DNA of 64,000 nt from Felis catus. Lineage: Eukaryota. Positions 3,007 to 6,000 of the stretch are shown one piece after another (position 1 is the first letter of the stretch; every line of letters starts with the position of its first letter). The position numbers and the translations under genes were made by a program. The stretch is taken from assembly GCF_018350175.1 (NCBI RefSeq), contig NC_058381.1, positions 40,176,001 to 40,240,000 of the forward strand. Direction: 5' to 3'. The notes beneath the pieces were generated by a model. It saw only the letters and a program-made list of their open reading frames with translations, searched no databases and was not told the origin of the DNA.

Positions 3007-6000
3007 CTAACGCACAAAGGTGTTGCAAGGCCCGCACCGAGCACGTTGGACACAAGGATTGGTGACGCAAGGCCCAGTGGGTTTGTCACATGCATTGGTT
3101 GTGGCACATGGGTTGCAGGGGAGCCTGGAGAGAGAAGATCATGGGGGCAAATTAGAGGGAAATGACCTGAAGACATAGGAAGATACTAAATGCACTCTGT
3201 GTAAGAATATAGCACTGCCTCACACTGCCTCCAACCAAAAGCTTGAAATTATAAATTTGTCTCCATCAGGATGATTTCTCATCCCCACGCAACCTCATGC
3301 ACCCCCAAGGGAAATAGTACTAGCTTCCCACTCACTTGCAATCCTCGCTCTCCAGCAGGCCCCGGTACGTGTTGATCTCGCACTCCAGCCGGGCCTTGAC
3401 GTCCAGCAGCACCTGGTACTCCTGGTTCTGCCGCTCCAGGTCACAGCGGATCTCGGCCAGCTGGGACTCCACGTTGGTGATCATGCACTGCACCTGGCCC
3501 AGCTGGGAGCTGTAGCGCGCCTCGGTCTCCGTCAGCGTGTTCTCCAGGGAGTCCCTCTGTGTGGGGAACATACGGAATGTCACAGAGCCGCTTCTCGGGG
3601 CATCGCCATGGGACTCCAGAGAAGCCACGGGCTTCACCAGGTGAGGAGAGGGTGGGCAGCACCCTGAGCGACACCCACCAGGTTGTGCTGGGCCTGCAGC
3701 TCGATCTCCAGGGCGTTGACCGTGCGTCTCAGCTCGATGATCTCTGCCTGGCAGGACTGCAGCTGCTCCGCACTGGACACCACTTGCTTGTTCAGCTCCT
3801 CGGTCTGAAACAGCACAGGGGACGAGACAGGGTGAGACCCTGCCTCAAGGGCTGCAAGGTGCCGAGGGGCCCGGGCGGCCGCGTGCTGAGATGCCCACCT
3901 GGGTGGTGAACCATTCCTCCACGTCCCTGCGGTTGGTCTCCACCAGGGCCTCATATTGGCTCCTGGTCTCGTTGAGCACGCGGTTCAGGTCCACGGTGGG
4001 GGCCGCGTCCACCTCCACGTTGAGGCGGTCTCCGATCTGGCAGCGCAGGGTGTTGACTTCCTAAAAGAGGAAGGGGAAGATGGAAAGAATCACAAAGGGT
4101 TCTGGTGCTCCCTTCTAAGAGAGCAGGTCAGCTTGTGATCATTCTTCAGCTTTCAGCAGCTCTGTGCCACCAGATCCTCTCACAACTGGGTTCTGTAATC
4201 AGTACTTAATCCGTGTATTCCACTTGGCAAAGTATTTCACCCCTAGGACCACTTTCCACCCCCATATTCGGACTATGCCTCCTCATTTAGAGCAGCGATT
4301 CAGCCTCCGAGCTGAGATATGAGAGACCACCATGTACACTGTGGACCCCAAGCACCCAGTTCAGTGTTTTTGCTCATACACCACACAGCCTCTTAGGTTT
4401 GATTCTTAACCATGGCTAATAAAAAGGATAGAGTCCTACTAAAGAGGAAATAAAGAGTGCTTACTTCAAAATCTCCCATCTGGGATGGAATAGACCTAAC
4501 TGGTGGTTTGGTGATTCTATCAAGCTAGATTCTGCTGAAGGAGATAAGTATCCATTCATTTCCCTGCTATCTCTTCATAAAGCCAATATAACTTGGTACT
4601 TGGGCTTAGGTGGTTATCAAGCTTGAGTTGAGGGCCATCTCTACCACTTACTATATGGCTTCTAGAAGCTTCTAGGAGTCTCAAGCTCTCCATCTACAAA
4701 ACGAGAACTACCTCTGGAGTTCTAAAACACTTAGCACAATGTTTGGCACACAATAAGCTCTTGATTACTATTAACCATCGCTATTTACATTGTTCTGGTA
4801 TTTAAGGTTTGCACGAAATGTCTGTCTCCTTGATCACACAACTGACCAAGAAGTGACAGTAAGCATTTTGCTCAGCATTTTCTCCAGACAGCACTGACTA
4901 GCAGAGAAAGCTCTGGAGGAGAAGGAGGAGAGGTGGTTTTGTTTCCAGCTGAGCCCTCTCTGCTGGGTGGCCATCCTGGCCTCTGCAGGTGCTTAATGGG
5001 GAACTGGGATACAAGATCTCTGCATCCCCGCAGAGCGGAGGAGGCTGGGAGCGGAGGAAGCTGTGGGCACTGCCTGGTTGTTGGTCTTTCCTCATTACTG
5101 GGCTTGCCAACTTCCTTCACTCTCACCCCCGCCTCTGGCAGAAACATCCTACTCTCATATCACAGGTTTTCAATTGCTCATTCTCTACAAATCCTTTTGT
5201 TTGGAAGACAGATTCCTCAGCACGTAGAGCCTCTCCCACACCCCACAGCAGTTGGAAACAGGCTTTGGCGAGTTTCAGCCTGTTGCTCTTTGGGGAACCT
5301 CACCTGCTCGTGGTTNNNNNNNNNNNNNNNNNNNNNNNNNNNNNNNNNNNNNNNNNNNNNNNNNNNNNNNNNNNNNNNNNNNNNNNNNNNNNNNNNNNNN
5401 NNNNNNNNNNNNNNNNNNNNNNNNNNNNNNNNNNNNNNNNNNNNNNNNNCCGTCTCGTACCTGTGGTACAGGGGCATCAGGGACCCGCCAGACGGGAATA
5501 GGCCTGGCCCTGACTCTGGTTTCGTTCAGTCTGTCAGACAACTGGAAGTTTGGGGCTTATGGTTTCTACAGGCTTGTCTCTCATTCAGGTTTTTAACACT
5601 GAGCAGTAGCTCCTAGAGGAAAATGCTCTGGGAATCGGTTTTTGGTTTTGTTTTTTGTTTTTTGGGTTTTTTTTGGATAAATAAAGAGCCAGTAGACTTA
5701 GGCAATAAAAGTTGATACACTGTGAAATTTCCGAAATTAATTCACCTCTCACATTCTCCTGATTGCATTCTGTGCAGAGCAGAGCAATGGCGGGAGACGG
5801 AGGGATGCCTAACTTCTCTCCTAGATTGGAGGGATGTCACCTTACAGAGAAGCTGGAGGAAGGGTCTGCATCTAGAGATGAGAGCTCTGAGCTCTGCTGA
5901 GCAGTGGCTCTGTGGATCCTGGGGGAAACGTCTAGGGGAAAGCTTTGTCAGTGTTGAGGACCGGCTAAGGGGCAAGAGGAGAGAGGGGACACCCCACTCG

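Follow-up and report, generated by a model that had tools for sequence, protein, structure and literature searches.

Shared and private segments alternate along four tandem hair keratin genes of the cat, probably through recurrent gene conversion

Introduction

The 64-kb stretch of cat DNA analysed here (the window) contains four complete type I hair keratin genes, all on the minus strand, together with the larger part of a fifth. The locus raises the question of how genes with unrelated long introns can carry an exon that is letter-identical in all four of them, which other parts are kept alike, how widely this occurs among placental mammals, and by what process.

Results

Gene structure and identities

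The coding exons of the four genes measure 348/83/157/162/126/221 bp, followed by a tail exon, and the products of 404, 407, 393 and 409 residues are stop-free across the visible (non-N) part. KRT33A, KRT33B, KRT34 and KRT31 were identified by matching tail and exon 2 to database proteins of other cats. The KRT33A tail differs from cheetah Ha3-I at 2/38 residues, that of KRT33B from a leopard-cat protein with an Ha3-II-type tail at 0/38, that of KRT34 from cheetah Ha4 at 0/27, and that of KRT31 at 0/37 from a tiger protein which was itself labelled KRT31 by its tail. Across the set, exon 7 differs at 0–2 residues from named orthologs vs 6–11 from paralogs; the tails are indeed gene-specific, as the initial annotation had stated. 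An IF rod domain (PF00038) is present in all 120 listed matches to exon 1 (239 matches in all).

Other keratins are named here from gene order and known motifs: the fifth gene of the window we take to be KRT37/38-like, and the names of the KRT32/35/36/13/15/19-like neighbours and of the type II keratins are putative in the same way. The domain names head/coil 1A, coil 1B and coil 2 are putative assignments of exon segments.

The features of the four genes, all on the minus strand, are:
7634–3007, minus: KRT33A gene, named from its tail and exon 2 against proteins of other cats
3336..4060, minus: KRT33A homogenised block (exon 4 4060–3899, intron 4 94 bp, exon 5 3804–3679, intron 5 122 bp, exon 6 3556–3336; splice sites GT/AG)
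19299..20021, minus: the block in KRT33B, with an intron 5 of 120 bp and N over most of exon 6
32826..33550, minus: the block in KRT34, differing from KRT33A at 10/725 positions
45836..46562, minus: the block in KRT31, with an identical exon 4, 8–9/94 differences in intron 4, 6–7/221 in exon 6, and N over most of exon 5
7287..7634, minus: KRT33A exon 1 coding sequence, 348 bp, second homogenised tract, 1–2/210 from KRT33B/KRT34 and 9/210 from KRT31
24231..24578, minus: KRT33B exon 1 coding sequence, homogenised
35282..35629, minus: KRT34 exon 1 coding sequence, homogenised
48126..48473, minus: KRT31 exon 1 coding sequence, less completely homogenised, 9–10/210
6010..6092, minus: KRT33A exon 2, 83 bp, not homogenised, 10–13/83, 0/27 residues from the ortholog of other cats
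22179–22261 (KRT33B), 35097–35179 (KRT34), 47836–47918 (KRT31), minus: exon 2 counterparts, not homogenised
5304..5460, minus: KRT33A exon 3, 157 bp, mostly N, mixed signal in proteins
21058–21214, 34428–34584, 47330–47486, minus: exon 3 counterparts, mixed signal in proteins
3007..3124, minus: KRT33A exon 7 coding sequence, private tail
18409–18535 (KRT33B), 32277–32361 (KRT34), 45059–45191 (KRT31), minus: exon 7 counterparts, private tails

A block from exon 4 to exon 6 is homogenised, introns included

The 162-bp exon 4 is letter-identical in all four genes (3899–4060, 19860–20021, 33389–33550, 46401–46562), and KRT33A and KRT34 differ at only 10/725 positions over the whole block (3336–4060 vs 32826–33550) with zero indels: 2/94 in intron 4, 6/122 in intron 5 and one synonymous change in each of exons 5 and 6. 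In these respects the initial annotation was accurate. The letters read N over most of exon 3 in three genes, most of KRT31 exon 5 and most of KRT33B exon 6, and over 138 exon 1 bases in three genes, so that four-way identity is fully visible only for exon 4 and intron 4.

The introns within the block are nearly as alike. Intron 4 differs at 2–3/94 positions among KRT33A, KRT33B and KRT34 and at 8–9/94 against KRT31, and intron 5 at 3–6/120–122 and 7–10%, respectively. Taken over all pairs, introns 4 and 5 are 2–10% different vs 31–44% for the long introns, and for KRT33A and KRT34 the counts are 8/216 for introns 4 and 5 together vs 334/839 for intron 3 (Fisher p=3e-30). That introns 1, 2, 3 and 6 are unrelated was likewise borne out, as the 31–44% of differing aligned bases compare with 36–48% in shuffled controls. 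The sharp edges claimed for the block are real: likeness begins at the AG of the intron 3 acceptor and stops about 7 bases into intron 6, which starts with GTGAGTG in each of the three genes that show it. A genome-wide search with intron 4 returned only four matches, which are the four genes themselves.

Fourfold sites of exon 4 show 0/27 differences among the four genes vs 9/16, 12/20 and 10/21 against the KRT32/35/36-like neighbours, about half, so that neither chance nor codon constraint explains the identity. The block copies retain 37 variable columns, arranged in patchwork partitions. KRT31 is the least homogenised copy, though it lies nearest to KRT34 (13 kb), and an effect of distance was rejected for this reason. 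Another candidate, stronger homogenisation of exon synonymous sites than of block introns, was dropped as not significant (2/169 vs 8/216, p=0.20). All 24 of the 24 listed sequencing runs contain 68–92% of the words sampled from positions 3000–4400, a figure that is no measure of identity between copies.

Base composition was considered separately. The GC content of introns 4 and 5 is 0.69 and 0.60–0.63, that of the long introns 0.39–0.50, and GC3 reaches 90–99% in exons 1 and 4–6. These values were not accepted as proof of GC-biased conversion, because short intron 4 is equally GC-rich (0.62–0.72) in unconverted KRT32/36/13/15/19-like neighbours. Synonymous divergence is reduced in exons 3, 5 and 6 because GC3 exceeds 90%.

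Homogenisation extends to exon 1

Exon 1 constitutes a second homogenised tract that had been overlooked: only 1–3/210 visible bases differ among KRT33A, KRT33B and KRT34, and 9–10/210 against KRT31. Exon 2 is not homogenised (10–13/83 differences, 12–16%). Each gene is thus ordered as a private upstream region, shared exon 1, a private stretch from intron 1 to intron 3, shared exons 4–6 and a private tail. The initial annotation had spoken of a common rod module, a description that is not supported, since exon 1, which encodes the head and the rod start, is equally homogenised and exons 2–3 within the rod are largely private.

The upstream regions of KRT33A (7635–7934) and KRT31 (48474–48773) are still alignable, with 67/290 differences. 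Other gene pairs differ at 34–40% there, and a short upstream motif of KRT33A and KRT31 is present in KRT33B too.

The exon pattern in proteins of other placental mammals

A homolog search (239 matches, 120 listed) and a cluster look-up yielded 208 proteins, 88 of which were hand-picked and labelled; 11 of these were excluded ahead of the quartet analysis because they were chimeric or frameshifted, ambiguous, or from marsupials, which left 77 proteins from 25 placental families. Each of the 270 quartets combined two paralogs with two families, and informative sites were scored as grouping by lineage or by ortholog. Lineage/ortholog counts were 3082/27 (99%) for exon 1, 829/12 (99%) for exon 4, 437/4 (99%) for exon 5 and 914/28 (97%) for exon 6, and 79/239 (25%), 315/372 (46%) and 142/684 (17%) for exons 2, 3 and 7. 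The exon 7 figure is partly circular, the paralog labels being tail-based, while exons 2–3 are independent of the labels. This split between exons persists when carnivores are removed, when only carnivores are used, and in a set of 17 quartets built from disjoint pairs of families.

Quick trees from short alignments (36 proteins, 11 families) agree. At the protein level, the exon 4–6 tree groups by lineage, requiring 12 changes of family, where 10 is the minimum, and 24 of paralog, whereas the tail tree groups by ortholog (31 family, 4 paralog changes). The corresponding values are 13 and 23 for exon 1, and 28 and 8 for exons 2–3. Judged from these proteins, the homogenisation is not felid-specific, and the exon pattern is pan-placental.

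Four tail types recur across families. In exons 2–3, paralog-specific residues are conserved across families at positions 120, 138, 192 and 196, with lineage/ortholog counts of 0/130 at position 138, 0/80 at 192 and 8/115 at 196. Position 189 in exon 3 holds a residue common to all carnivores, set between private ones.

Within the cat family, exons 4–6 of KRT33A in the window differ at 0/169 residues from leopard-cat KRT33B vs 6/169 from cheetah KRT33A, and exon 2 and tail differ from the ortholog in other cats at only 0/27 and 2/38 residues. For KRT31 and tail-labelled tiger KRT31, there are 7/126 differences in exons 4–6 vs 0/27 in exon 2 and 0/37 in the tail. These comparisons indicate that conversion is recent within cats.

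It had been suggested that conversion could spread new residues such as RCQIG and QVQCMIT to all four proteins at once. Lineage-wide spreading is real, at other sites; these two motifs are not examples of it. RCQIG occurs in 44/77 proteins (15/25 families) and QVQCMIT in 35/77 (13/25), the carriers including shrews, moles and bats, and with so wide a distribution they are not felid novelties.

Three of the 11 excluded proteins, P0053, P0157 and P0027 (horse, alpaca, meerkat), join exons 2–3 from one paralog to a tail from a different one. They could be either true chimeras or annotation errors.

Other keratin groups and the length of matching segments

The fifth gene of the window (57415–61177) was compared with two neighbouring KRT37/38-like genes (L001:5975-9014; L003:1-3020). 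Introns 2–3 of the fifth gene are unrelated to those of the neighbours; exon 1 and the exon 4–5 block are 96–97% alike in all three:
57415..57810, minus: fifth gene, exon 4–intron 4–exon 5, 97% identity to the two neighbours beyond the window (exons 2–3 79–81%)
60782..61177, minus: fifth gene, exon 1 tract, 96% identity to the same two neighbours

Between the two neighbours likeness extends from exon 3 through exon 6, but their intron 2 is mostly private. A degenerate fragment resembling keratin exon 6, probably a pseudogene remnant, lies between KRT37/38-like and KRT32-like genes (L004:35-175).

Four type II hair keratins (L012–L019, G000:C16:78662148-78725887) share exon 1, exon 2 (0/209), a block of about 1040 bp that is 95–98% alike, and exons 6–7 with the short intron between them; exon 5 and introns 4–5 of two genes were left out of this comparison. 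The 61-bp exon 3 differs at 10–15/61 positions, 9–13 of them at its 21 third positions. The 96-bp exon 4 differs at 11–12/96 positions where it lies between unrelated introns, vs 2–4/96 where a shared intron links it to the block. Two of these genes, inverted relative to each other, make up a pair with 97.7% likeness over 4287 bp.

Across the three keratin groups, and with the near whole-gene-identical inverted pair left out, five isolated exons of 61–157 bp differ at 23–54% of third positions vs 0–9.4% in twelve segments from stretches of at least 209 bp (Spearman -0.61, n=17 segments, for length and third-position divergence). The groups were picked after the pattern had been seen, the segments depend on one another, and the homogenised introns themselves set the block length. 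Eleven further rows gave a mixed outcome at 157–162 bp: third-position differences amount to just 3.8% and 1.9% in KRT13/15-like exons of 157 and 162 bp, and in KRT32/35/36-like genes to 8.8% for exon 3 and 47.5% for the 162-bp exon 4. A hard threshold of 200 bp was rejected, being broken by exons of 157–162 bp.

Three observations were made in passing. The KRT13/15-like pair (L008:2330-3662, L009:5046-6700) differs at 4/157 positions in exon 3, 4/162 in exon 4, 9/221 in exon 6 and 20/126 in exon 5; its introns are unrelated, which makes it a candidate for exon-only conversion. In the KRT32/35/36-like genes (L004–L006) exon 3 differs by 3–6% and exon 4 by 20–24%, the reverse of the KRT33A group. 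Among three KRT6-like genes (L023–L027), two are 98% alike over 7044 bp and the third is about 90% alike, introns included.

Discussion

Of several possible explanations for this mosaic, we favour recurrent interlocus gene conversion, which the initial annotation had proposed and which is supported by the grouping of exon 4–6 proteins by lineage and of tails by ortholog in both quartets and trees. That conversion acts at the DNA level seems very probable, given bounded tracts that include neutral sites, together with the lineage grouping. In its fuller form, the reading that the old tandem paralogs KRT33A, KRT33B, KRT34 and KRT31 are repeatedly rewritten, with rewriting likely confined to places that keep an unbroken match of about 150–200 bp or more, is one that we consider probable.

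An alternative that accepts conversion would let selection draw the map, with exons 2–3 and tails protected and converted alleles purged there. It fits the persistence across families of the paralog-specific residues in exons 2–3 (138, 0/130; 192, 0/80; 196, 8/115), the carnivore-wide residue 189 flanked by private residues in exon 3, and the near-identity of 157–162-bp exons in KRT13/15-like genes. However, type II exon 3 differs mostly at third positions (9–13/21, of 10–15 in total), so that there is little protein difference to guard, type II exon 4 changes state with the adjoining intron, and in the KRT37/38-like group it is the same-numbered exons that escape; we regard this alternative as unlikely, although it is the most serious of those considered. 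Unequal crossing-over or repeated lineage-specific duplication (birth-and-death), instead of conversion, is far less probable. Unequal crossing-over is cited alongside conversion in PMC4195889, and the chimeric-looking proteins P0053, P0157 and P0027 would suit it, but a duplication or single crossover would bring whole introns too, while alike and unlike segments alternate along the genes, ortholog signal is found on both sides of the block, and four tail types recur across families.

The two remaining alternatives can be given hardly any weight. Complete identity of exon 4 might suggest that the copies owe their likeness to a collapsed assembly or to polishing; yet variable columns remain in the block (37, in patchwork partitions), proteins from many separate assemblies carry their own lineage-specific shared residues, and mis-mapping presupposes near-identity and could erase only a few differences. 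Polishing may still have hidden a few. Equally improbable is that purifying selection with codon bias, or conversion from spliced cDNA, lies behind the exon identity. The edges do sit at splice sites and GC3 is 90–99% in exons 1 and 4–6, but the homogenised introns 4–5 contradict such an origin, exon 4 third positions are 43% different from those of KRT32/35/36-like genes, amino-acid changes are common to paralogs within lineages, and a cDNA donor should also have covered exons 2–3.

Given interlocus conversion, an account in terms of length and pairing appears reasonably likely, and is compatible with some selection. Purifying selection would keep exons alike enough to pair and so seed conversion, and tracts anchored in the flanking exons could span introns 4 and 5, which are short and equal in length. 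After diverging, long introns would halt the tracts and leave sharp edges, and isolated short exons (61–96 bp) would be too small to seed conversion and diverge with their own gene. The expected outcome in each lineage is a set of four proteins with common head/coil 1A and coil 2, and with gene-specific coil 1B residues, tails and promoters. A bolder generalisation, which we advance tentatively and would sooner doubt than assert, is that exon–intron architecture alone, with a step near 150–200 bp, decides which domains evolve in concert in type I and type II keratins, so that hair-keratin clusters might serve as a placental-wide ruler for minimum conversion homology and each lineage might retune head and coil 2 of the whole hair filament together.

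If the length step were true genome-wide, it would provide an in-vivo estimate of the homology required for conversion. Tests of orthology and selection on whole keratin genes blend two histories, and with two histories per gene orthology must rest on exon 2, tail and flanks. Short-read variant calls and peptides in exons 1 and 4–6 are not assignable to one gene. A coding change in these exons can reach four co-clustered cortex keratins, which bears on the evolution of hair, wool and claw.

Comparison with known systems

The homogenisation as such is not new. Concerted evolution of exactly K33a/K33b/K34/K31, and of K81/K83/K86 and K6a/b/c, has been reported (PMC4195889; PMC5540548) from whole-gene trees in which paralogs group by species, and conversion or unequal crossing-over was blamed. 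The carnivores in those studies are dog, and polar bear and Weddell seal; cat does not appear among the species in the available text of either. RDP4/GENECONV was significant for K33a/K33b/K34/K31 in one of the five species listed in supplement 2 of PMC5540548. Our results concern the same four genes and the same species grouping of paralogs; unlike these whole-gene studies, they specify which exons convert, the homogenisation of introns 4–5 and the length pattern. In the text available, the singular words "intron" and "exon" are absent from PMC4195889 and have no relevant use in PMC5540548, and PMC12523852 refers to conversion in general terms and otherwise for KAP1 alone. Among CC-licensed PMC papers and bioRxiv, no exon-level map, intron 4–5 homogenisation or length pattern was found. 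Process and gene set are thus known, the new part is where conversion acts along the genes, and the exon-wise, placental-wide mosaic with its apparent length step is a useful refinement.

A close likeness is to the tandem HMA4 genes, for which mosaic divergence by interlocus gene conversion has been modelled (bioRxiv 10.1101/2025.10.29.685298). There, too, short introns between constrained exons are homogenised, long introns escape, and exons beside long introns hold fixed differences. The HMA4 triplicates of plants are young, and their long introns remain about 5% apart, whereas the keratin paralogs are as old as placental orders, with step-like edges and long introns that can no longer be aligned. 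In rodent cells the MEPS (minimal efficient processing segment) is about 200 bp, with tracts of 50 to several hundred bp, according to a review (PMC3924818), and in the three keratin groups the switch lies between 157 and 209 bp. MEPS, however, refers to perfect identity in reporter assays, while the keratin value is an evolutionary outcome over exon lengths, mixed at 157–162 bp. It has also been hypothesised that introns stabilise duplicates by reducing homology (PMC9220161). As in that proposal, diverged introns restrict recombination between copies; the introns of the keratin genes, however, do not stop exchange but confine it to long exons and exon blocks.
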